Origin: an uncultured Candidatus Binatia bacterium
GTDB taxonomy: Bacteria; Desulfobacterota; Binatia; UBA9968; JAJDTQ01
Direction: 5' to 3'
Assembly (NCBI GenBank): GCA_965215605.1
Contig: OZ244070.1
Span: 2,968,158 to 3,032,157 of the forward strand
Length of the DNA: 64,000 nucleotides
The notes beneath the pieces were generated by a model. The model was not told the origin of the DNA. It saw only the letters and a list, made by a program, of their open reading frames with translations, and made no database searches. The first letter of the stretch is position 1, and every line of letters starts with the position of its first letter. Positions 10,176 through 23,013 of the stretch are shown piece after piece. A program made the translations under genes and the position numbers.

Positions 10176-11663
10176 TCAGGCGGCGGCCTCGTCCGCCGCG
10201 TCTCCGTCGGCGTTCCGTCCCAGGGTGAGGGAGAAGCCGGGCTTGCGGATGTAGACCTGGGTGTATTCCTGCTGCCGGGTGAGCTCGTTGACGAGCCGCA
10301 CCAGCGGCTGGCTCGCGCTCAGGTACTCCCGGGGCCGGCCGGCGTTCTGCAGCGCCTCCACCGCCTCGTCCCCCGCGTACACCCGCATGATCAGTTCCTC
10401 GTCGGACATGGACGGGCCACCGAGCTGCGCCCGGACCTCCTCGAGCGACGGGTCGGGCTGCTCCCAGTTCTCCCAGGCCCTGGCCCGCGGCCGCCCCAGG
10501 ATGCGGTCCTTCACGTCCGGGTCCATGTACTCGGCGCCCTGCCGGCCCCAGATGCCCAGGGCGTACTGGATGGACTGGTCGGTGACCTGCTTGTAGCGCT
10601 CGCCCATGATGACGTTGATGGCCGCCTGGGTGCCGACGAACTGGGACAGCGGCGTCACCATGATGGGATAGCCCCACTCGGCACGCACACGCGCGGCCTC
10701 CTCCAGCGCCGCCGGCAGCTTGTCCTCCATGCCCACCATGCGGAGCTGGTGCACGAAGTTGGAGATCATGCCGCCGGGCACCTGGTGGGCATAGACGGAC
10801 TGGTCGAAGGCCGCGGGCGCGCCCATGGGCAGCCCGTCCCTTTTGGCCACGAAGGTGAAATGCTCCCGCACCGGCTTGAGCGCTTCCTCGTCCACCTCTA
10901 CCGTGTGGCCCATGGCGCGCACGTTCCTGAGCATGTTGAAGATCGAGGGCTGGGCCGAACCGTTGGCCAGGGGCGGCACGCTGGTGTGGATGGTGGTCAT
11001 GCCGAGCTTGATGGCTTCCAGGTAGTTGAGCGGCGCCAGCCCGTTGTTGCAGTGGGCGTGGAACTCCACCGGGATGTCGCCGATGTTTTCCAGCACGATG
11101 GGCACCAGCGTGCGGGTGCGTTCCGGAGTCAGCATTCCGCCCACGTCCTTGAAGCAGATGCGGTAGGGCTTCAGGGCGGCGGCTTCCCGGGCCTTCTGGG
11201 CGTAGTACTCGTCGGTGTGCCGCGGCGATACCGAGTAGATGATGTTCGCCACGGCATCCATGCCGAGCTCGCGCAGGTCGTCCACCTCCTGCTTGAACAC
11301 CGAGTAGTCGTTCCACGGGTTGGAGTTGCGCGTCAGACGGATGCCGTTGTCCACCAGGTGACTGACCACCAGCTTGGCCACCGACGTGGGCTTCTTCTCC
11401 AGCCCGCCCCGGATGCTGCCGTGCATCCGCAGCGGGGTGTTGCGGGCGCGCCGTGTGCCTTCCCGGATCCAGCGCCACGGGTTCTCCTTGTGCTCGCGCA
11501 CGTACTTCTTGATCATGGTGGCGCTGAAGAACTCCATGGACTCGAAGCCCGCCCGGTCCATGCCCTCGATGGCCTCCAGCATGGCCCCGGTCCTCATGTT
11601 GTAGGCCCACAGGCTCTGGTTGCCGTCCCGCAGCGTGGTGTCCACGAAAGTGACGTCGCTCAT
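10176..11663 (-). CDS. Carboxyltransferase (5S/OadA-type), paralog B
   Basis: MSDVTFVDTTLRDGNQSLW, CFKDVGG, EFHAHCNNGLAP. Its stop lies 8 nt upstream of the paralog A start. Confidence 0.85.
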   Translation of the reverse strand: MSDVTFVDTTLRDGNQSLWAYNMRTGAMLEAIEGMDRAGFESMEFFSATMIKKYVREHKENPWRWIREGTRRARNTPLRMHGSIRGGLEKKPTSVAKLVVSHLVDNGIRLTRNSNPWNDYSVFKQEVDDLRELGMDAVANIIYSVSPRHTDEYYAQKAREAAALKPYRICFKDVGGMLTPERTRTLVPIVLENIGDIPVEFHAHCNNGLAPLNYLEAIKLGMTTIHTSVPPLANGSAQPSIFNMLRNVRAMGHTVEVDEEALKPVREHFTFVAKRDGLPMGAPAAFDQSVYAHQVPGGMISNFVHQLRMVGMEDKLPAALEEAARVRAEWGYPIMVTPLSQFVGTQAAINVIMGERYKQVTDQSIQYALGIWGRQGAEYMDPDVKDRILGRPRARAWENWEQPDPSLEEVRAQLGGPSMSDEELIMRVYAGDEAVEALQNAGRPREYLSASQPLVRLVNELTRQQEYTQVYIRKPGFSLTLGRNADGDAADEAAA

Positions 11664-11673
11664 GCGTTCGTCC

Positions 11674-13161
11674 TCAGACCGCGGCCCCGCCGGCCGTGTC
11701 TCCGTTGGCGCTCCGTCCCAGGGTGAGGGAGAACCCCGGCTTGCGGATGTACACCTGGGTGTATTCCTTCTGTTTGGTCAGCTCGTTGATGAGCCGCACC
11801 AGCGGCTGCCGCGCGCTCAGGTATTCCCGCGGCCGGCCGGACTCCATCATGGTCTTGACCTCGTCCACGCCGGCGTAGACCCGCAGTACCAGCTCCTCGT
11901 CCGAGATCGAGGGTCCGCCCAACTGGGACCGGAGCTCCGCCAGCGACGGCTCGGGCTGCTCCCATTCGGTCCACGCCTTGGCCCGGGGCCGGCCCAGGAT
12001 CTTGTCCTTGACGTCGGGGTCCATGAGTTCGGCGCCCTCGCGGCCCCAGATGCCCAGGGCGTACTGGATGGACTGGTCCGCCACCTCCTTGTAGCGCTCT
12101 CCGAGGATGACGTTGAAGGCCGCTTGGGTGCCCACGAACTGGGACAGGGGCGTCACCATGATGGGGTAGCCCCACTCGGCGCGCACCCGGGCGGCCTCCT
12201 CCAGGGCCGCCGGCAGCTTGTCCTCCATGCCCACGAGCTTGAGCTGGTGCACGAAGTTGGAGATCATGCCGCCGGGCACCTGGTGCAGGTACTGCCCGTG
12301 GTTGTATTCCACGGGCTTGCCGATGGGGAGCCCGTCGCGCTTGGCCACGTAGGTGAAGTGCTCCTCCACCGGCCGCAGCGCCTCCTCGTTCACCAGTGGC
12401 GTATGGCCCGTGGCGCGGATGTTCCGCACCATGTTGAAGATGGAGGGCTGCGCCGACGCGTTGGCCAGCGGCGGCACGCTGGTGTGGATGGTGGTCATGC
12501 CGAGTTCGATGGCCTCCAGGTAGTTGAGAGGCGCCAGGCCGTTGTTGCAGTGGGCGTGGAACTCCACCGGGGTGTCGCCGATGTTCTCAAGCACCAGCGG
12601 CACCAGGGAGCGGGTGCGCTCGGGGGTGAGCAGCCCGCCCACGTCCTTGAAGCAGATGCGGTAGGGCTTGATGGCCGCGGCTTCCCGCGCCTTCTGGGCA
12701 TAGTACTCGTCGGTGTGACGCGGCGACACCGAGTAGATCAGGTTCGCCACCGTCTCCATCCCCAGCTCGCGCAACCCCTTCACCTCTTCGCCGAAGACCT
12801 CGTAGTCGTTCCAGGAGTTGGAGGTGCGCGTGAGCGTGATGCCGCTGTCCACCACCTTCTGGATGATGAGCTTCAGGATCGACGCCGGCTTCTTCTCAAG
12901 CCCTCCCTTGAGTCCGCCGTGGAGCCGCAGCTCGGTCTTGCGGAGCCGCTTGGTGCCCTCCCGCAGCCACTCCCAGGGGTTCTCCTTGTGCTCCCGGACG
13001 TACTTCTTGAACATGTTGGTAACGAAGAACTCCATGGACTCGAAGCCCGCCTGGTCCATCTGCTCGGCGGTCTCCACCATGGCCGCCGTCTTCATGTTGA
13101 GCGCCCAAAGGCTCTGGTTGCCGTCCCGGAGGGTCGTATCGATGAATCGGATCTCGCTCAT
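11674..13161 (-). CDS. Carboxyltransferase (5S/OadA-type), paralog C
   Basis: MSEIRFIDTTLRDGNQSLW at ATG 13161. It carries the same catalytic motifs. Its stop lies 10 nt upstream of the paralog B start. Confidence 0.85.
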   Translation of the reverse strand: MSEIRFIDTTLRDGNQSLWALNMKTAAMVETAEQMDQAGFESMEFFVTNMFKKYVREHKENPWEWLREGTKRLRKTELRLHGGLKGGLEKKPASILKLIIQKVVDSGITLTRTSNSWNDYEVFGEEVKGLRELGMETVANLIYSVSPRHTDEYYAQKAREAAAIKPYRICFKDVGGLLTPERTRSLVPLVLENIGDTPVEFHAHCNNGLAPLNYLEAIELGMTTIHTSVPPLANASAQPSIFNMVRNIRATGHTPLVNEEALRPVEEHFTYVAKRDGLPIGKPVEYNHGQYLHQVPGGMISNFVHQLKLVGMEDKLPAALEEAARVRAEWGYPIMVTPLSQFVGTQAAFNVILGERYKEVADQSIQYALGIWGREGAELMDPDVKDKILGRPRAKAWTEWEQPEPSLAELRSQLGGPSISDEELVLRVYAGVDEVKTMMESGRPREYLSARQPLVRLINELTKQKEYTQVYIRKPGFSLTLGRSANGDTAGGAAV

Positions 13162-13275
13162 GGGGTCTCCCGAATGAAAACTGGTGCGGTGTTCCATATT
13201 GGCCGGTGTTGTTGCATACCGGCCAGTGTCAACTGCTCATAGTGGCGTGAATGCGGAAACGGGTCAAGGCGGCCC

Positions 13276-15569: not shown

Positions 15570-15608
15570 AATTTGGAAGGTGACGAGAGGAAGCAGTTGC
15601 GTTACACG

Positions 15609-16076
15609 CTATAAATGGAGCGCTTTGGTCAGCGGGTCTCCACACTTGATCAGCACGGTAACCTTTCGTTGTCCTCGCAGTTGGATTTTTCTGGAGCGAA
15701 GCACCTTGAGGTCGTTTCTGTGGATGGTCTTGCCGTGCGCCAGGACCGGCACGAAGTGGAACGATATTCCCTCCGGGAGCCAGTTGTGAGCCGAGTCCGT
15801 GCCCCCCTCAAGTTGTTCCAACACCTCAGCGGCTTTCAGTCCACCGCTCTTCAACTCGATGGGCGCTATCCAGGTGGCGTCGCCTCTTTCTCCGAGGAAG
15901 AGGTAGTCACACCGTTTCTGTTGGCGCGGGAGTTCCAGCCCGTCGCAGTCCATGTCCACCAAGAGACGTGTCTCCGGTGCGCCCTTCAGGTCCACCCGGC
16001 ATCTGTCCTTGTTGCAGTGAATGGCATGACAGCAACCGGGAACGCGGCCGGCCACCGCCGCCACCGTTCCACTCAT
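15609..16076 (-). CDS. Hypothetical 155-aa protein; Cys/His cluster plus PD-(D/E)xK-like nuclease motif (candidate effector)
   Basis: ATG 16076 overlaps the ATPase stop (ATGA at 16073-16076). It has GCCHAIHCNKDRC near the N-terminus, then CDYLFLGERGDATWIAPIELKSG (D57...E74-x-K76). G+C is low, about 50-52% in counted lines. Confidence 0.7.
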   Translation of the reverse strand: MSGTVAAVAGRVPGCCHAIHCNKDRCRVDLKGAPETRLLVDMDCDGLELPRQQKRCDYLFLGERGDATWIAPIELKSGGLKAAEVLEQLEGGTDSAHNWLPEGISFHFVPVLAHGKTIHRNDLKVLRSRKIQLRGQRKVTVLIKCGDPLTKALHL

Positions 16077-17602
16077 CGGGGGTTACTGTCCTGGATGCGA
16101 TTGAAAATGCTTGCGCTCTCGTTGTACAGCGCCTCACTGACAGCATCGTAGTCGGTTGGATAGAGGCCGGTTTCCTCGTCCAGTTTCACTTCTTCCACCA
16201 CCGATCCCCTCGGGCGCCGCTTCGGCTTGAACATCCATGCCCCCACGTCCTCAGGGCGCAGGGCGACCTTGGCGTCGGCGGCTTTCTTGCCCCCCGCATC
16301 GGACAGTGCAGATCGCCGCACGATATTGGCGAGCTCCTCCAGCACCCATTCGCTGTGCGTCGTAACGATCACGCGGACGCCTGCGCGGACCAGCAGCGCG
16401 AGTTGACGCGTGAACTCGACCTGCATGGCCGGATGCAAGTGAGATTCCGGCTCCTCGATCATCAGCACGCTGTCGGGTCCGACCCTGTGGCGCAAGTACA
16501 GAACCACCGGTGCCAGTTCCGATACCATGGACGAAGTGTTCATGAGGGGCAGGTCGTCTTTCCAACCTTTTGGACGATACGCGAAGTGCGGATAACCGGT
16601 GACTTCAGACCGGTTGACCAGTACATGACCGCCCAGGACTGCGTCTTCGATACTTTTCGCGAGATCTTGTCGAGGCGCGCGGGCCCAGTAAAGTCGCGAC
16701 ACATTCCGTCGCGACGGACGGTCGAGTTCGATCAACTGTTGCAGGAAATCCGCCAAGACACCTGAAAGCATGGGCGTGCGCGCGGCTGGACGCAAGCCTG
16801 TCATGGCTGCGCTTCCGATCGTGGCGCTTACCACCGCACTGTGGGCATGCATGACGCCCGTCCGGTCGGCAGGAAGGTAATAGCCGTCGAGATGCAGCGG
16901 ACCAAGCACGTACGGGAGGATATGGTCGGTGAGATTGATGAGCAACTGAGTCAGTCGCCATTCCCGATCGGGTTCTCCTGGCTCGGCGACACGAGTCGGT
17001 TCGTTGCCAAAGGAGCCGAGATCGAGAGTGATTTCATCCCGTTCGGTTATCGGAATGGCCATGTCTTCGGATAGGGTCGCCGTATATTCCGCGTCTCGCC
17101 CGCCGAGCAACAACCGGTGTTCGGCCATCCCCGAATCATCGGGGAGCCGTTTTCGCAACACGACGTTCGCGAAGTCGTGGCTTCCCTTGCGGATCAGCCC
17201 GCGGAGATCGCGGATGCCGAAGCATCGGACGATCTCAAGGGCCAAGCGGTCACCGTGGGATTTGATTGCGGTACGAACAGCATCCGTGATTCCACCGGGT
17301 AGGACAACGCGTCCTCCGAAACCTGGCTTCGCCATGTCTTCAGCGGTCCGCTTTGCGAATGCGGCCAACGTGTTGACGGTTTTCCGAGGCAGTTCGGGAC
17401 GCTCCTCGAATACTCGCCAATGGCGGAACCCGGCGCTGAAATGCCGGTGCAGCGCATATATCAGGATCGCCAGATAGGATTTGCCGGTGTTGCTCGGTCC
17501 GACGAATACGGTAAGCGGGCGCAGGTCCACTCTGGCTTCGACGATAGGGCCGAAATCCGCTACTCTAACTTCGAGAGTGTCTCGTGGAGGTCGATCCTTC
17601 AT
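16073..17602 (-). CDS. ABC/AAA_15-AAA_21-type ATPase (defence-system-like)
   Basis: Walker A is GPSNTGKS (17477-17500). Walker B/D-loop is VLMIEEPESHLHP (about 16433-16468). The H-loop is VIVTTHSEW. The likely start is ATG 17602; the track ORF begins at TTG 17626. Confidence 0.9.
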   Translation of the reverse strand: MKDRPPRDTLEVRVADFGPIVEARVDLRPLTVFVGPSNTGKSYLAILIYALHRHFSAGFRHWRVFEERPELPRKTVNTLAAFAKRTAEDMAKPGFGGRVVLPGGITDAVRTAIKSHGDRLALEIVRCFGIRDLRGLIRKGSHDFANVVLRKRLPDDSGMAEHRLLLGGRDAEYTATLSEDMAIPITERDEITLDLGSFGNEPTRVAEPGEPDREWRLTQLLINLTDHILPYVLGPLHLDGYYLPADRTGVMHAHSAVVSATIGSAAMTGLRPAARTPMLSGVLADFLQQLIELDRPSRRNVSRLYWARAPRQDLAKSIEDAVLGGHVLVNRSEVTGYPHFAYRPKGWKDDLPLMNTSSMVSELAPVVLYLRHRVGPDSVLMIEEPESHLHPAMQVEFTRQLALLVRAGVRVIVTTHSEWVLEELANIVRRSALSDAGGKKAADAKVALRPEDVGAWMFKPKRRPRGSVVEEVKLDEETGLYPTDYDAVSEALYNESASIFNRIQDSNPR

Positions 17603-17745
17603 GCCTTGGCTACACTCTTCCAGCAATCACACGGGCTCATCGGATGCCTTCCCTGATGGTAGATCACCGGAGCGGGAGCGCAAATCCAGCCCAATCTGCA
17701 GGGGGATGCGCGACCGCACCGGATCACGGGCGGCAGATGACGGAG

Positions 17746-18978
17746 CTAACCGGTAGCCTGCCGCTTCGGGTTTGCCTCCGCGGCAGCGTGGGCCTTCTGG
17801 AAATCTTCCTCGTCGAAGTTGTAGAGCCCGGCGCCGCCCATGAAGATGGCCGCGGCGGTCGCCCGTGACACGTTGTTCAGGAGGTTGTTGGAGACGTTGG
17901 GGAAGTTCGAGTCGAAGTGCGGGTAGTCGGTGGAGATGCACATGCGGTCCGCGCCGATGAGCTCGGCGGTGCCGGCGATCTCGGGCTCGCTCCCTTCCAC
18001 CGCGGCCCAGCAGTTCCGCTGGAAGTACTCCTTGGGGGTCAGCGACAGGTACGGCGCGTGGGAGTCGCGATAGTTGGCGTAGTCCCACTCGATGCGCGTC
18101 AGTATGCCCGGCACCCAGGAGTTCTGGGCTTCCAGGTAGCCCACCCGCAGCTTGGGATGGAACTCGAAGACGCCGCCGATGATCATGGCGATGAGCGCCT
18201 GCTGCATCTCGATCCAGTGGCTGGCGACGTGGCGGTAGAACCGGTTCTCGCCGTACAGATCGTTCATGTGGGAGTTCCACGCGCCGGTGCCCTCATGGAA
18301 GCACCAGGACACGTCCAGCTCCTCGTGCAGGCTGTAGAGAGGGTCCCAGTAGTTGGAGTGCCAGAAGTGGCCGTTGATCATGTTGGGCCGGATGAACGAC
18401 GCCACCGCCCCGAGCTCCTCCACCGCCCGCTTCAACTCGTGGCACGCCAGGTTCACGTCGTGCAGCGGCAGCATGGCGGCGAACTTCATGCGGTCCGGGG
18501 AGTACTGGCAGAAGTCGTGGATCCAGTCGTTGTACGCACGACTCAGGGCGTGCGACATGTGCGGGTCCATGTCGTCCCGCGCCAGCAGCCCCAGCCCGCC
18601 GGTGGGGAAGAGCACGGCGATGTCGATGCCTTCCATCTCCATCCCCATGACCTGGGCTTCCTCGTCGTATCCCCGCTCGATGGCGAAGTCCAGGCGCCCT
18701 GTGTCGGCGATGCGGGAGGCGGACAATACCCCGGTGGCGGCCCCCATGACGGGCCCCGTGGCCTTGGACGACGCGGCCTTCTTGCGGTGTTGCTGCAGCT
18801 CCGAGTCCGCGCCGGTAGGCAGCCCGTCGATGGTCCAGGTGCGCCGGCTGATCTTTCCCTTGCCGTCCACCGCCCAGGTCACGCGGTGCTTGAAATCGGG
18901 GTCCAGGTATTTCTCCAGCAGGTCGCCGGGTTCCTGAATGTGCATGTCGCTGTCAACGAAACGCAGGCCGTCTTTCAT
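17746..18978 (-). CDS. Amidohydrolase_2 family protein
   Basis: Start MKDGLRFVDSDMHIQEP follows AGGAGG at ATG 18978. Motifs: GIDIAVLFPT, AYNDWIHDF, CISTDYPHFD. Confidence 0.85.
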   Translation of the reverse strand: MKDGLRFVDSDMHIQEPGDLLEKYLDPDFKHRVTWAVDGKGKISRRTWTIDGLPTGADSELQQHRKKAASSKATGPVMGAATGVLSASRIADTGRLDFAIERGYDEEAQVMGMEMEGIDIAVLFPTGGLGLLARDDMDPHMSHALSRAYNDWIHDFCQYSPDRMKFAAMLPLHDVNLACHELKRAVEELGAVASFIRPNMINGHFWHSNYWDPLYSLHEELDVSWCFHEGTGAWNSHMNDLYGENRFYRHVASHWIEMQQALIAMIIGGVFEFHPKLRVGYLEAQNSWVPGILTRIEWDYANYRDSHAPYLSLTPKEYFQRNCWAAVEGSEPEIAGTAELIGADRMCISTDYPHFDSNFPNVSNNLLNNVSRATAAAIFMGGAGLYNFDEEDFQKAHAAAEANPKRQATG

Positions 18979-19444
18979 TTCGTTCCTCCTTGTCAGGGCG
19001 GGCCGGGGGCCAAGCGTATCCACGCGCCCTTTGCGCCGCATCGATACGAACGACACTACCGGAAGTGGCGGCTCGCGGTCAACGACAGCCGGGCGCGGCG
19101 GTCTCTCCGTTGGCCACGCGTATGTCACGGTAGCAGACAGTGGCTACGACCGCCCAGCATGCTCTGATCGATCCGTTCACCAAGAGGATCGCCGGTGACA
19201 GCAAGCGAAGGACAGGCGCACGACGGGCCAGACCGCGATCTTGTCGTCGCCGGCAGGCGCGTTGAGTGAGCTTAGCTCGGGCTGGTCAGCTTCCAAGGTT
19301 CGGTTCTCCGGCTCTTTGTCCCTTTAGACTTTCCGCTGGCTCCGTGCAATAAGGAACGGTCAATTTATATATCGAGGGGCGGCGGCCCGGCACGGCGTGG
19401 CCGCCGGTCGTCGTTGCAACTTCACGAGTCTGAGGGACCTCATT

Positions 19445-20374
19445 ATGAAGAACAGGGCTTTGCGAGCCTTTCAACTTCACGTCCATCGCGTCCGCCTGTT
19501 GCCTGTGTTGGTGCTGGGGCTCGCGGCTGCGGGTTGCGCCCTGTCCACGGATACGGCCCGCCTCGACGAGGTCGCCAGGGCGGGCATCGTCTATGCCGAC
19601 AAGCTGCCGCGGTTGCTCGATCGGGCATTCGAGTTGGCGGCGGCGGTGGATTCGGGCGCGTTGGTGGAGGCGCGGCCGGGGCTCTCCGCGGAGCAACGCC
19701 GGGAAGCATTGCGGGAGTTCGACGCGGCCACTGCGGAACGCCTGGAGGGATACGTGGCGGCCAAAGGTCACAACGGCTTGTTGAGATCCTACTTCCTCGT
19801 GTTGCAGACCCTGGCCGAGCCCGAAGGACGGAAGGGCAGCGGCAATGCCGCGAAACGGCTCACCGCGGAGTTGGGCAGGCTGTCGCCAAGGATCAGGAAG
19901 GCCCGCATGGGCGATGTGTCGGTGGCCGGTTTCCTCGAGCCGGCGGTGGAGATCGCGGTGGCGTCATTCCGTTCCGCGGCGCTGCGGCTTGAGCTCGAAG
20001 CGCGCGGAGCGACCATCGAGCGCGAGTTGGCCGTGCAGCAAGCCCTGGTGAGCGCCCTGGCGCGTCAGGTCCGCGCGGACCAGGAGGTCCTGTCGGCCCG
20101 TTTTCGGGATGACGAGGTGGTGGAGCCGTACGTGAGCGCCGCCCGATTGCCCAAGGCCTGGCCGGCAAAGCGGCTAAGGAGCCTGCGGGACAGCGGCGAT
20201 CTTGAAGCGGCGCGGGCGGCGCAACGGGCCATGCGTTCGTTGCGGCAGGCATACGTGGCCGCGCTGGAGGGACGCCTGGATTCCACCCGGGCAGCCGAGC
20301 TGGCCACCACCGTCGAGGGTTTCGTCGAACTGGTGTCGCGACTCGGTGCCGGAGCAAAAGGAGCCGTTCGATGA
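19445..20374 (+). CDS. Hypothetical alpha-helical lipoprotein
   Basis: ATG 19445 follows GAGGGA. The lipobox is LVLGLAAAGC. The rest is Ala/Arg/Leu/Glu-rich and helical, with no motif I recognise. Confidence 0.65.
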   Translation: MKNRALRAFQLHVHRVRLLPVLVLGLAAAGCALSTDTARLDEVARAGIVYADKLPRLLDRAFELAAAVDSGALVEARPGLSAEQRREALREFDAATAERLEGYVAAKGHNGLLRSYFLVLQTLAEPEGRKGSGNAAKRLTAELGRLSPRIRKARMGDVSVAGFLEPAVEIAVASFRSAALRLELEARGATIERELAVQQALVSALARQVRADQEVLSARFRDDEVVEPYVSAARLPKAWPAKRLRSLRDSGDLEAARAAQRAMRSLRQAYVAALEGRLDSTRAAELATTVEGFVELVSRLGAGAKGAVR

Positions 20375-20706
20375 CGTCGGGAGAGATTCGAGGCAAGACG
20401 CTGTCGGAATTGCGCCGGGCGCGAAAAAACATGATGTCGGCGGAATGGCTCGCGGGATTGGAGAGTCTGTCCGCGGCCGAGCGCACGGTGGCGGCAACCA
20501 CGCTGCTGGACGTCTGCATGGCCATCCGGCGACTCGAGAACGTCGGCGTCGCGGCCATCCGGCGCCAACTGGCCGATAACGAAAATGAGCTTGAACGGGG
20601 TATCCGCGGTCTTCAACGGGCTTCGGAGCGACTCCACCGGGTGAAGACGTACCTCAGGGCCGCGGCCGTGCTCGCGGCGACCGTGGGCAAGGTGGTCAAG
20701 CCTTGA
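20371..20706 (+). CDS. Hypothetical 111-aa helical protein, translationally coupled to the lipoprotein gene
   Basis: ATGA overlap at 20371-20374, with SD AAAGGAG 7 nt upstream. No recognisable domain. Confidence 0.55.
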   Translation: MTSGEIRGKTLSELRRARKNMMSAEWLAGLESLSAAERTVAATTLLDVCMAIRRLENVGVAAIRRQLADNENELERGIRGLQRASERLHRVKTYLRAAAVLAATVGKVVKP

Positions 20707-20805: not shown

Positions 20806-21198
20806 TCAAGCGGCCATGGTGGCTACGTCGTATCGCGGGATATGGTGGTCGCGGGTGACGAGTATCAATCCCTCGGCTTGGGCCTGGGCGATCAGAAAAC
20901 GGTCGAACGGGTCACGGTGGTGCATCGGCAGTTTGCCCGCCTGCTCGGCATGATGGAAGGTCAACGGCAGGTGGGTGAAGCGCTTTTCTTCAACCATCGC
21001 CGACAGGTTGTCCGGCGCGGTCATGGTCCCCTTCGCCCGCTTGACGGTGACCTCCCAACCGGTAATGGCGCTGACGAAGACGTCGTTTCCGGAGTCGGCG
21101 ATCGCCGAACGGGCCGCCTCGGTCAGCCGCGCGACATCGGTGACCCACCATATGAATGCGTGGGTGTCCAGCAACAGCCGCACGACGTCAGTCCTCAT
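20806..21198 (-). CDS. vapC: Type II toxin, PIN-domain ribonuclease VapC
   Basis: LLLDTHAFIWW...FVSAITGWEV...HRDPFDRFLIAQA...LVTRD carries the PIN acidic residues. Confidence 0.85.
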   Translation of the reverse strand: MRTDVVRLLLDTHAFIWWVTDVARLTEAARSAIADSGNDVFVSAITGWEVTVKRAKGTMTAPDNLSAMVEEKRFTHLPLTFHHAEQAGKLPMHHRDPFDRFLIAQAQAEGLILVTRDHHIPRYDVATMAA

Positions 21199-21442
21199 CC
21201 GGGAAGATCTTCGAGTTCTCGATCAGGTCCATGAGTTCCTCGTCGGGCTCGTCAAAGTCGGGGGCCATCCATATATGCCCTTCCAGCCCACCAGGCTTTC
21301 GTTCCTCCGCCGGTCGTTTGTACGGCTTCAGCACAAGATACGGTTCGCCGGCCTTGGCGATCACGATCTCCTCGCCTCCCCAAGCCAACTTGCCCAACCT
21401 GGAAAGTTGGGACTTCGCCTCGTGCATGTTCACCTGTTTCAT
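21188..21442 (-). CDS. Phd/YefM-family antitoxin
   Basis: The N-terminus MKQVNMHEAKSQLSRLGKLAWGGEEIVIAKAGEPYLVLKPY is Phd-like. It overlaps vapC by 11 nt. Confidence 0.8.
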   Translation of the reverse strand: MKQVNMHEAKSQLSRLGKLAWGGEEIVIAKAGEPYLVLKPYKRPAEERKPGGLEGHIWMAPDFDEPDEELMDLIENSKIFPDED

Positions 21443-21456
21443 TTGAGGACCTCATT

Positions 21457-21475
21457 AGCTAAATTGAGCTAAATT
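21457..21475 (-). promoter_or_regulatory. Putative antitoxin operator: 9-bp direct repeat AGCTAAATT x2 (10-bp period) just upstream of the phd start
   Basis: AGCTAAATT occurs at 21457-21465 and 21467-21475, in an AT-rich patch 15-33 nt upstream of ATG 21442. Confidence 0.4.
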
Positions 21476-21498
21476 TTATCAGGAGGTACCCATTCCCG

Positions 21499-21885
21499 TC
21501 AAGATGGAGATCCGACGCGAGACACTTGGTGAGCCAGGCCAAGCCCGTCGGCTGCCGCTCTCAGACGTTTGTCTCGCGTCCACAGTCGCGCTGGGGGAGC
21601 GAGGGCCGTGGCCGCCAGCAAATGCATGTCAATGTAGCCGATGCCCCGTCCCATCAACCCGTTTCGCCCAATGAAATAAAGCACTTCGGAGTCTTCCGCG
21701 GCGGGGATGGCGGGCAGGTCCTGCAACATCGCCAGGATCTCTTGGCGTCGGGCAAGGTTGCCGCAGGCCAACTCGCCGATGACGAAGGGATGGACAAGCG
21801 CTTGATCGGCGTCGAGCATGTGCGCCAATGCGCGGCTTCCGGCGCGCAGATGCTCGATCCATACCGACGTATCGACCAGGATCAT
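21499..21885 (-). CDS. vapC: Type II toxin, PIN-domain ribonuclease VapC
   Basis: MILVDTSVWIEHLR...HPFVIGELACG...GIGYIDMHLLAAT...LWTRDKRL. Confidence 0.85.
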   Translation of the reverse strand: MILVDTSVWIEHLRAGSRALAHMLDADQALVHPFVIGELACGNLARRQEILAMLQDLPAIPAAEDSEVLYFIGRNGLMGRGIGYIDMHLLAATALAPPARLWTRDKRLRAAADGLGLAHQVSRVGSPS

Positions 21886-22094
21886 TGGCGGGACGGACCC
21901 TCGCCGGCGGAGCGGCGCCGTGGGACCGGTTGCAAATCAGCTTGACTGCCGCCGAGCTTGGCGAGCCGTCGTGCGCTTTCCCGCTCCACGAGGGCTCGAA
22001 GGGCTTCACGAATCAGCGCCGGTTTGGCGGTGATGTTGGTTAGCTCACGAGCGCGCGCCAGCAGATCGTCGTCTATGTTCAGGGTGGTTCTCAT
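21882..22094 (-). CDS. vapB: VapB-type antitoxin (70 aa)
   Basis: MRTTLNIDDDLLARARELTNITAKPALIREALRALVERE, starting at ATG 22094. A 4-nt overlap joins it to vapC. The 166-aa track ORF over-extends upstream. Confidence 0.75.
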   Translation of the reverse strand: MRTTLNIDDDLLARARELTNITAKPALIREALRALVERESARRLAKLGGSQADLQPVPRRRSAGEGPSRQ

Positions 22095-22208
22095 AACGCT
22101 GCTTCGAAGCAAGACCGAACCAAAGGCCAATCGTATGAAGGCCGATAGTAGCATCAGTGATGTCAGAATCAATGTCAACGGTCCCGGCGGCAGGGTGTAA
22201 AATCCTGA

Positions 22209-22877
22209 TCCTGCCTGCGCTTCCTCTTCGCCCTCCCGCGCTACTCGGAAGACCTGTACTTCGCCCTTGAAAGCGATACGGACCGCTATGATCTGCGTGC
22301 TTGGCTGAAGGCCATTCGCGCGGAGTTGTCCCGCGAAGGCTACAGCGTCGGTCTCACCGTTCGGGACCACAATCCGGTTCATAGCGCGTTCGTGCGCTTC
22401 CCGGGGGTTTTGTACGACGCGGGCCTCTCACCCCATCGAGAAGAAAGCCTTGCCGTCAGGATCGAGGTCGATACGCGCGCTCCGGCCGGGGCCGTCCTGG
22501 AGACCCACCTCGTGCGGCGCCACGTGACGCTACGGCTGCGTCACCACGACCGCGCGTCGCTGCTCGCCGGCAAGCTGCACGCGATCTTGCAGCGTCCCTA
22601 TGCCAAGGGAAGGGACCTGTACGACCTGATCTGGTACATGAGCGATCCGACCTGGCCCGCGCCCAATCTCAGGCTGCTCAACGCGGCCTTGCGGCAGACT
22701 CATTGGTCGGGCGGAGTGCTGCGGGACAACACCTGGCGGGAGACGATGATCCAGCGTCTCGACGCCTTGGCGTGGGACCGGGCGGCCGCGGATGCGCGCC
22801 CGTTCCTGGAGCGGGAAGAGGATGTGGAGTTGCTGACTCGGGAGAATGCCGTGCGGCTTTTGACCGAGCACCCGTGA
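22209..22877 (+). pseudogene. N-terminally truncated AbiEii/AbiGii-family nucleotidyltransferase toxin remnant
   Basis: The frame opens right after TGA 22206-22208 with no start codon. It reads ..PRYSEDLYFAL.. where the family motif is R-x-SEDLDF, so the second Asp is replaced by Tyr. The C-terminal LLAGKLHAILQRPYAKGRDLYDLIW is typical of the family. The upstream GG(T/S)AL part is missing. Confidence 0.65.
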
Positions 22878-23013
22878 TAGTGGGTAGCGTGCGAGCAGCG
22901 TTGCTACCCAGTGTCAAGGGAAGATGAATTATGTCCACCGCTATTGTATGATGGCCTATCCTGACCGCGGCTGACGCTCCGGCGGGACGATCCAACATGG
23001 AAGCAGGTTCCAC

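Follow-up and report, generated by a model that had tools for sequence, protein, structure and literature searches.

A two-gene islet with an OLD-like ABC ATPase and a minimal PD-(D/E)xK protein as a probable stand-alone anti-phage module

The contig OZ244070.1 of an uncultured Candidatus Binatia bacterium holds, in the stretch of 64,000 nucleotides that was analysed as a whole (hereafter, the window), a small islet of two genes, which probably constitutes a stand-alone module against phages or other mobile elements. The first gene encodes an OLD-like ATP-binding cassette (ABC) ATPase and the second one a minimal protein of the PD-(D/E)xK type, and the pair would belong, as a distant relative, to the superfamily of WonAB, PD-T4-4 and PDC-M47. 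This defence reading appears well supported by homology and by the genomic context of the relatives. Experiments have validated the pairing of an ABC ATPase with a small PD-(D/E)xK nuclease before, and no new defence principle is involved. In this regard, the original prediction, which had presented the pair as a candidate with an uncharacterised logic, went too far, since a known and validated superfamily (WonAB, PD-T4-4) already comprises this architecture as well as the two folds. What seems to be new, judging from the comparison of sequences, is the clade itself, which is large, unannotated and marked by a signature of four cysteines (Cys4), together with a clean natural case of replacement of a whole cassette (Insert 1) of the ATPase.

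The two open reading frames (ORFs) run on the minus strand and, as originally described, share an ATGA stop/start overlap at positions 16073-16076, which can be read directly from the sequence. The view of both genes as a conserved operon is supported by their homologues, since in all 23 loci that include the region upstream of the small gene, the gene directly preceding it encodes an ATPase homologue, with small-protein identities that go from 27 to 96%. Taxonomic spread was poorly sampled, as the scan of genome contigs relied on a single small-protein query and gave one locus, L001.

The islet nature of the pair is revealed by a relative that does not carry it. In L031, a 4.3-Mb contig with the gene order of the window, the Amidohydro_2 protein is 96% identical to its window counterpart, and its gene has the M23 peptidase gene as its immediate neighbour, across a spacer of 95 bp (L031 7224-7318) that contains a perfect GC-rich hairpin (GGGGTGAAAGCG...CGCTTTCACCCC). 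Nucleotide homology between the two sequences (blastn) ends at window position 15572 and restarts at 17756, so that 2,183 bp occupy the place of the 95 bp. Because these break points bracket the segment, the islet is delimited at 15573-17755, which nearly matches the limits proposed from the sequence beforehand. The pair occurs at the same position in five other relatives (L001, a Thermodesulfobacteriota metagenome-assembled genome, and L002, L004, L005 and L006), where most flanking segments are 83-94% identical to the window at the nucleotide level. With the L031 site empty and those of five relatives occupied, the pair is therefore a presence/absence polymorphism inside one lineage, and its status as a horizontally acquired indel is supported. 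No integrase, transposase, mobility gene, flanking repeat or convincing target duplication was seen in the comparison of the islet with the empty site.

Base composition sets the islet apart as well. The gene pair has a G+C content of 59.8%, the lowest among all stretches of the same length in the window (mean 66.1%, standard deviation 2.0), and the G+C content at third codon positions (GC3) of its two genes is 0.675 and 0.718, versus 0.87-0.93 in the four flanking genes measured. The counts made by hand on single lines, from which a dip had been proposed, are exact (51.7, 50.0, 51.7, 58.3 and 56.7% inside; 71.7 and 68.3% outside), and the dip is real in the computed profile, although the lines picked overstate its depth. 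The promoter presumably lies in the leader, given the position of this region; a scan for terminators at the islet gave nothing useful. In L002 (7527-9029), the ORF of the small nuclease has no stop near the C-terminus and runs on for 500 aa in antisense through the M23 peptidase gene, the result of either an assembly error or a pseudogene.

The genomic surroundings of the homologous pairs speak of defence. At L003, the neighbours are MmeI, UvrD with DUF2290, a Patatin and SMODS combination (CBASS) and HTH/M78 genes, whereas the pairs of L022-24 adjoin further AAA_21 with DUF3226 and AAA_15 with DUF4276 pairs. In two loci, L027 (3841-17505) and L028 (3813-16432), the pair sits exactly between a helicase (SNF2/NOV_C) and a methylase (DUF1156), and a DUF499/HEPN ATPase follows downstream; partial or degraded versions of the helicase-methylase arrangement are present at L009, L022-24, L003 and L026. 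We read the arrangement of helicase, methylase and DUF499 ATPase as the helicase-methylase-ATPase (Hma) system of Payne et al., who reported that what is embedded in Hma usually turns out to be a defence system itself, a principle called “guilt-by-embedding” (10.1101/2024.01.29.577857). Both the co-occurrence of the two genes and the presence of homologous pairs in defence islands, either at L003 and L022-24 or as Hma-embedded copies at L027 and L028, had been set as checks in the original prediction and were borne out. Solo copies also occur, in metabolic neighbourhoods at L020/L021 and L025, and at L008 and L012. Several of the homologous pairs adjoin degraded Hma genes or insertions of Y1 transposases. 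At L022 (7445-9004), the ATPase is split into two called genes of 75 and 252 aa with the nuclease gene intact; this pair, which lies within a defence island, is decaying. Around the window copy, the two PIN/VapC modules (20806-22382) and the AbiEii fragment (22326-22877) that had been taken as a defence neighbourhood do exist, but at 3-5 kb from the islet and not adjacent to it.

The ATPase matches the Pfam families AAA_15 (3.8e-18) and AAA_21 (4.4e-12), and its top PADLOC models are PD-T4-4_A (9.3e-35) and PDC-M47A (6e-25), followed by NsnB and AriA; no NCBIfam model scored above its cut-off. Its AlphaFold2 model is an ABC ATPase fold (predicted TM-score, 0.83), for which the nearest solved structures found by Foldseek are PtuA, from Septu and retron systems, and SMC heads, with TM-scores of only 0.32-0.41. 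A sequence search of the PDB found no relative for either protein of the pair. As initially proposed, this is an ABC ATPase of the AAA_15/AAA_21 type, and neither Pfam nor the AlphaFold2 model indicates a fused nuclease domain. Across 45 homologues, the invariant elements are K41 of the Walker A, R247 of the YLPADRTG motif, the SSMVSE stretch, the IEEPE of the Walker B and the TTHS of the H-loop. All motifs quoted at the outset (GPSNTGKS, LMIEEPESHLHP and TTHS in the ATPase, and D57/E74/K76 in its partner) are found at their expected places.

The small protein, with seven cysteines in all, has no match in either Pfam or NCBIfam, and in PADLOC it matches PDC-M47B only (1.2e-3), through residues 52-92 or 41 of the 186 model positions. 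Its family is tight, with 173 close homologues of about 155 aa, the few named ones being labelled “hypothetical protein”. It is also large, since a profile search of 1.84 billion representatives recovered at least 1,337 clusters (50% identity) at E<=1e-3, with 812 at E<=1e-10. The AlphaFold2 model (predicted local distance difference test, 95.2) shows three strands (residues 36-41, 58-64 and 67-76), followed by a helix (82-99) and a further strand (111-114), where D57 lies just ahead of the second strand and E74-x-K76 ends the third one. Together with the conservation of D57, E74 and K76, this model displays the alpha-beta-beta-beta-alpha-beta core of PD-(D/E)xK proteins. The top Foldseek matches in the PDB are BsmI, Bse634I, FokI, EcoO109I and McrC, all of them weak (best E 6e-3, TM 0.3-0.4). 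Over 128 representatives, D57 is conserved in 98%, E74 in 100% and K76 in 95%, with D43 and Q88 within 95-100%, and so are four cysteines: C16 (93%), C26 (98%), C56 (97%) and C145 (91%). From the predicted fold, we regard the protein as a minimal, divergent PD-(D/E)xK protein, in keeping with the small Cys-rich PD-(D/E)xK-type partner of the original prediction, and the four conserved cysteines may form a metal staple that fastens the catalytic strand to the N-terminal hairpin and to the C-terminus. The partner carries neither an HNH nor a TOPRIM signature, as had been pointed out. Septu, PARIS, AbiL and Gabija-OLD were considered and rejected as identities for the pair: there is no HNH, TOPRIM or fused TOPRIM effector, and the fold of the partner is PD-(D/E)xK. 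In particular, the pair is not Septu, PARIS or AbiL because its partner is neither HNH nor TOPRIM.

The most informative relative is WonAB, from the WASA-1 prophage of Vibrio cholerae, which consists of an OLD-like ABC ATPase and a variant PD-(D/E)xK protein (PMC12137116). Its authors tie WonAB to an operon described in silico in 2020, “OLD-ABC ATPase + novel REase” (restriction endonuclease; Krishnan et al. 2020), which they found in 0.96% of bacterial genomes (PMC12137116). Defence by WonAB, a lysis-independent abortive infection, is lost if either gene, the motifs of the ATPase or the lysine of the nuclease are missing; the change R182A in WonA abolishes defence, and K71A in WonB abolishes both defence and toxicity. 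The toxicity of overproduced WonB depends on the presence of active WonA. Once activated, WonAB arrests translation and leaves genomic DNA intact, for which the authors suggest an rRNA or tRNA target, and AlphaFold3 models put the WonB nuclease on the C-terminal extension of WonA (all in PMC12137116).

The comparison with WonB was carried out by aligning twelve WonB-model hit sequences from Supplementary Table 4 of that work (PMC12137116). The invariant columns of these hits (D41, C51-D52, E69-L70-K71-G72 and Q81) have counterparts in the small protein of the window (D41, C56-D57, E74-L75-K76, G78 and Q88). An hhalign comparison of the small family with the twelve hits gave a probability of 96.1% and an E of 3.1e-9 over 61 core columns, and both sets find each other in reciprocal searches with hidden Markov models (HMMs) at 12-35 bits. 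The WonB-model hits match PDC-M29B of PADLOC, not PDC-M47B. On the ATPase side, BLASTP aligns the window protein with a Maridesulfovibrio WonA-model hit at 29% identity over 157 aa, including the C-terminal extension with DEETGL (E 2e-11), and the OLD-type set of motifs (Walker A Lys, Arg motif, signature, Walker B Glu and H-loop His) is complete. By comparison of motifs, and not by alignment to V. cholerae WonA, we equate these positions provisionally with WonA K34/R182/E300/H333. R247 would correspond to the IPA(G/S)RS motif of the WonA-model hits, within which WonA R182 is assumed to lie, and SSMVSE, to judge by where it lies along the sequence, would coincide with their SSGQQ. The motif strings of the window clade are absent from the part of the WonAB supplementary hit tables examined (PMC12137116).

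PD-T4-4 of E. coli, a P-loop/AAA_15 NTPase with a PD-(D/E)xK nuclease (Vassallo et al. 2022, PMC9519451), protects E. coli, and it was inactive in vitro on every DNA substrate tried. The class of its effector is disputed, being PD-(D/E)xK in three sources and HNH in one 2026 preprint. The window ATPase matches the PD-T4-4_A profile (9.3e-35) with 119 bits in two stretches, versus 770-870 bits for genuine plasmid-borne members, a match that speaks for homology rather than for family-level membership; in the region from signature to H-loop, 32% of its residues are identical to those of a bona fide PD-T4-4_A. A search of plasmids and phages with the ATPase gave distant matches only, and two of the plasmid ones that were examined proved to be genuine PD-T4-4, which we used as comparators. 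These operons of enterobacterial plasmids score 309-358 bits with PD-T4-4_B, and their B proteins also match PDC-M47B. An hhalign comparison of the small family with genuine PD-T4-4_B gave a non-significant probability of 1.9%. Membership in PD-T4-4 was rejected, as the small protein fails the PD-T4-4_B profiles. Of 40 proteins from the small family, 35 match PDC-M47B (best 7.8e-7). Payne et al. released 145 untested candidates through PADLOC (10.1101/2024.01.29.577857), which we take to be the PDC sets; PDC-M47 is not mentioned in the literature searched. We conclude that there is one superfamily with several deep clades: WonAB/PDC-M29-like, PD-T4-4, PDC-M47 and that of the window. A placement of both proteins in a named system, the outcome that the original prediction had set against itself, was reached at the level of superfamily only: PD-T4-4_B models fail, PDC-M47B and WonB match the catalytic core only, and no named-system model tested here recognised the pair as a member, so that it appears as a family-level member of no named clade.

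The hypervariability of Insert 1 of the ABC fold, which sits between helix H1 and strand S2 in the AlphaFold2 model of the ATPase, adds another argument. Identity was computed pairwise and region by region across 18 operons, with means of 70% for the N-terminal core of the ATPase, 23% for Insert 1 (residues 56-235), 64% for the C-terminal part and 53% for the nuclease. Between the window and L004, the small proteins are about 95% identical and the ATPases 61% overall, with divergence concentrated in residues 56-235: Insert 1 shows only 29% identity, and the last ~50 residues 100%. At the nucleotide level, window positions 16898-17437 have no blastn similarity in the syntenic relatives, despite flanks that are 83-92% identical. 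A second independent case is that of L023 and L024, with nucleases 100% identical, ATPase cores 88-94% identical and inserts only 34% identical. Payne et al. proposed that Insert 1 of the ABC fold sets trigger specificity (10.1101/2024.01.29.577857). No template of the type used by diversity-generating retroelements, silent cassette or template repeat for Insert 1 was found in the window by blastn or tblastn, and the variation therefore likely stems from allelic recombination or from fast diversifying selection. Such a pattern resembles the signature of an arms race, and we count it in favour of the defence reading.

A mechanism can be proposed along the following lines. The ATPase would dimerise head-to-head, as ABC ATPases do, with the hypervariable Insert 1 (residues 56-235) as the surface that recognises an infection cue, and its conserved C-terminal extension would hold the 155-aa nuclease, a docking that we propose after the AlphaFold3 models of WonAB (PMC12137116). 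Binding or hydrolysis of ATP would then license the nuclease (D57/E74/K76, stapled by the four conserved Cys) to cut nucleic acid, which would plausibly be an RNA of the translational machinery and not bulk DNA, with an aborted infection as the outcome. We lean towards an RNA target because WonAB leaves genomic DNA intact and PD-T4-4 is inactive on DNA in vitro. A more far-reaching version of the hypothesis, which we put forward as a tentative possibility, somewhat doubtful at present, is that of a distinct, large and unnamed defence family (at least 1,337 clusters at 50% identity), whose specificity would be re-programmed by the wholesale swap of the ~180-residue Insert-1 cassette while nuclease and docking surface stay near identical, and whose effector would be a minimal PD-(D/E)xK protein, stapled by a metal (Cys4; Zn or Fe-S), that cuts RNA and not DNA.

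Several observations weigh against defence as the role of the pair. The window copy stands solo between peptidase and amidohydrolase genes, outside any defence island and with the nearest toxin-antitoxin genes 3 kb off, and six syntenic genomes keep the pair at the same place, which fits a vertically kept host function too. No relatives of the small protein were found on plasmids or phages by tblastn, and none were found on viral contigs; unlike this clade, WonAB resides on a prophage and PD-T4-4 on an integrative and conjugative element and on plasmids. A scan of the leader for the sigma-70 consensus gave no match. The PD-T4-4_B models gave no match at E<=1 with the small protein of the window or with any of 40 family members, and its matches to WonB and PDC-M47B span only ~40-60 core residues. 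Finally, the substrate of the nuclease, the trigger and the metal site are purely what we infer from the relatives and the models.

Among other possible explanations, the pair could be an orphaned accessory module of the Hma system, able to work only alongside Hma components, so that the solo copy of the window would be a non-functional or repurposed remnant. The pairs found inside Hma at L027/L028, the partial or degraded arrangements at L009, L022-24, L003 and L026, and a window where no Hma component was found all point that way. We consider this origin unlikely, since both window ORFs are intact and the small protein and the C-terminal half of the ATPase are 76-95% identical to those of the syntenic relatives, a degree of conservation that argues for purifying selection on the solo copy. 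The further solo contexts described above (L020/L021, L025, L008 and L012) point to the same conclusion, as do WonAB and PD-T4-4, which function as two genes alone, and the Hma-embedded systems tested by Payne et al., which defended when cloned without Hma (10.1101/2024.01.29.577857).

A toxin-antitoxin or addiction module, where a nuclease toxin restrained by the ATPase would stabilise the locus instead of sensing phages, is in our opinion quite improbable. A small, translationally coupled pair has the right architecture for it, two VapBC modules and AbiEii lie nearby, and overproduced WonB is toxic. In WonAB, however, the nuclease is toxic only alongside an active ATPase, and simple sequestration is therefore ruled out for that system; moreover, a hypervariable, sensor-like insert is unexpected in an antitoxin, and embedding in systems akin to restriction-modification points to immunity. 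We give hardly any credence to a housekeeping pair for DNA repair or recombination, akin to SbcCD or to RecF-type ABC ATPases, which would account for the resemblance of the ATPase model to SMC and Rad50-type heads and for the position of the locus, kept in six related genomes. Against this idea, the presence of the pair varies among close relatives (L031 lacks it), its GC3 is foreign, all the best HMM matches are defence ATPases, there is no long coiled coil, and the distribution is sporadic and associated with islands, with a hypervariable insert in addition. The stand-alone defence module thus remains our favoured interpretation, and the features on which it is based are collected in Table 1.

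Table 1. Position of the islet, its genes and the protein motifs in the 64-kb window.
Feature	Coordinates	Strand	Remarks
Two-gene islet	15573..17755		insertion relative to the empty site in L031; from blastn and lowest GC
Leader / presumed promoter region	17603..17745	minus	between the Amidohydro_2 stop and the ATPase ATG; inside the inserted segment
OLD-like ABC ATPase gene	16073..17602	minus	509 aa counted from ATG, or 517 aa if the TTG at 17626 is the start
Walker A GPSNTGKS, residues 35-42	17477..17500	minus	from sequence; invariant in 45 homologues
Insert 1 of the ABC fold, residues 56-235	16898..17437	minus	hypervariable cassette, proposed sensor
R247 in invariant YLPADRTG motif	16862..16864	minus	from homologue alignment
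ABC-signature-like SSMVSE, residues 357-362	16517..16534	minus	invariant in homologue alignment
Walker B / D-loop LMIEEPESHLHP, residues 380-391	16430..16465	minus	E383, E384, P385 and E386 invariant
H-loop TTHS, residues 414-417	16352..16363	minus	invariant
C-terminal extension, residues 418-509, including DEETGL	16076..16351	minus	proposed nuclease-docking surface
155-aa putative minimal PD-(D/E)xK nuclease, Cys4 signature	15609..16076	minus	WonB/PDC-M47B superfamily
N-terminal Cys pair C16, C26	15999..16031	minus	conserved in 128 representatives
Predicted catalytic core C56-D57 ... E74-L75-K76	15849..15911	minus	from conservation and alignment with WonB-model motifs
C56	15909-15911	minus	one of four conserved cysteines
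C145	15642-15644	minus	one of four conserved cysteines

The neighbourhood of the islet offers some other observations. The AbiEii gene of the window is truncated: in the comparison of window 22212-22889 with L031 528-2084, ~880 bp of L031 are missing, which correspond to the 5′ part of a full-length AbiEii gene of 269 aa and to most of an adjacent gene of 212 aa. Between the Amidohydro_2 gene and the VapC modules, two overlapping ORFs of 325 aa (19397-20374, plus strand) and 111 aa (20371-20706, plus strand) are found, neither of them with a Pfam match and the former with a lipoprotein-like N-terminus; this region has ~88% nucleotide identity in L031, where genes of 310 aa and 111 aa are called. 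Lastly, tandem paralogous genes of the HMGL-like/PYC_OADA (carboxyltransferase) type, with a mutual nucleotide identity of 80-83%, adjoin a methyltransferase gene (window 11000-13197, L001 11079-15710 and L031 9954-13242).

Pairs of an ABC ATPase and a nuclease are among the commonest architectures of bacterial immunity, and with this locus the WonAB/PD-T4-4 superfamily gains a large clade that lacked annotation. It also connects four things that were described separately: WonB, PD-T4-4_B, PDC-M47B and the modules embedded in Hma. As nature provides near-isogenic operons in which Insert 1 is almost the sole difference, the notion that this insert determines specificity becomes directly testable. 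If the cassette-swap hypothesis were true, the allele pairs window/L004 and L023/L024 would be ready-made swaps for mapping how ABC-ATPase sensors recognise their triggers.

When compared with known systems, the islet shares with Septu (PtuAB), PARIS (AriAB) and HEC-02 (an ABC ATPase with a NERD protein) the combination of a sensor ABC ATPase and a separate nuclease effector. PtuA is in addition the closest solved structure to the ATPase model, and HEC-02B is also a PD-(D/E)xK protein. However, the partners in these systems are HNH (PtuB), TOPRIM (AriB) and NERD (HEC-02B) proteins, not minimal Cys4 PD-(D/E)xK ones, and the HMM matches of the ATPase to them are much weaker, from 1e-10 to 1e-19. 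PDC-M47 is the only family of the library matched by both window proteins (A 6e-25, B 1.2e-3), and the window family is often embedded in Hma systems, as are the candidates found by embedding. The B match, on the other hand, covers just 41 of 186 model positions, and a coverage filter such as that of PADLOC would therefore probably not call it. PD-T4-4 likewise combines an ABC ATPase with a small PD-(D/E)xK-type protein encoded after it, with its A component as the best PADLOC match of our ATPase, and both PD-T4-4_B and the small family match the PDC-M47B models. One difference is a PD-T4-4_B of ~210 aa, whose FDQKS faces the IELKS of the window protein in an alignment that is not significant.

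In the comparison with WonAB, homology between the nucleases is limited to ~61 core columns, with only 20 bits for the WonB HMM. Peculiar to the window clade are an N-terminal Cys hairpin, a C-terminal beta-meander that carries C145, and the string LAHGK, in whose place S/T-R-x-P stands in the WonB-model hits. The ATPase of this clade, of 509 aa, shows a distinct hypervariable Insert 1, and no phage or viral-contig copies were found for this clade, whereas WonAB is prophage-borne. Both systems consist of two genes, an ATPase and then a small nuclease of about 145-170 aa. The ATPases coincide in their OLD-type motifs (Walker A, Arg motif, IEEPE Walker B and H-loop) and in a homologous DEETGL-like C-terminal extension, and the nucleases have in common the motifs VD(x)(D/G)C, K(R/K)CD(Y/F)L and (I/V)ELK(S/G)G, followed by a glutamine.

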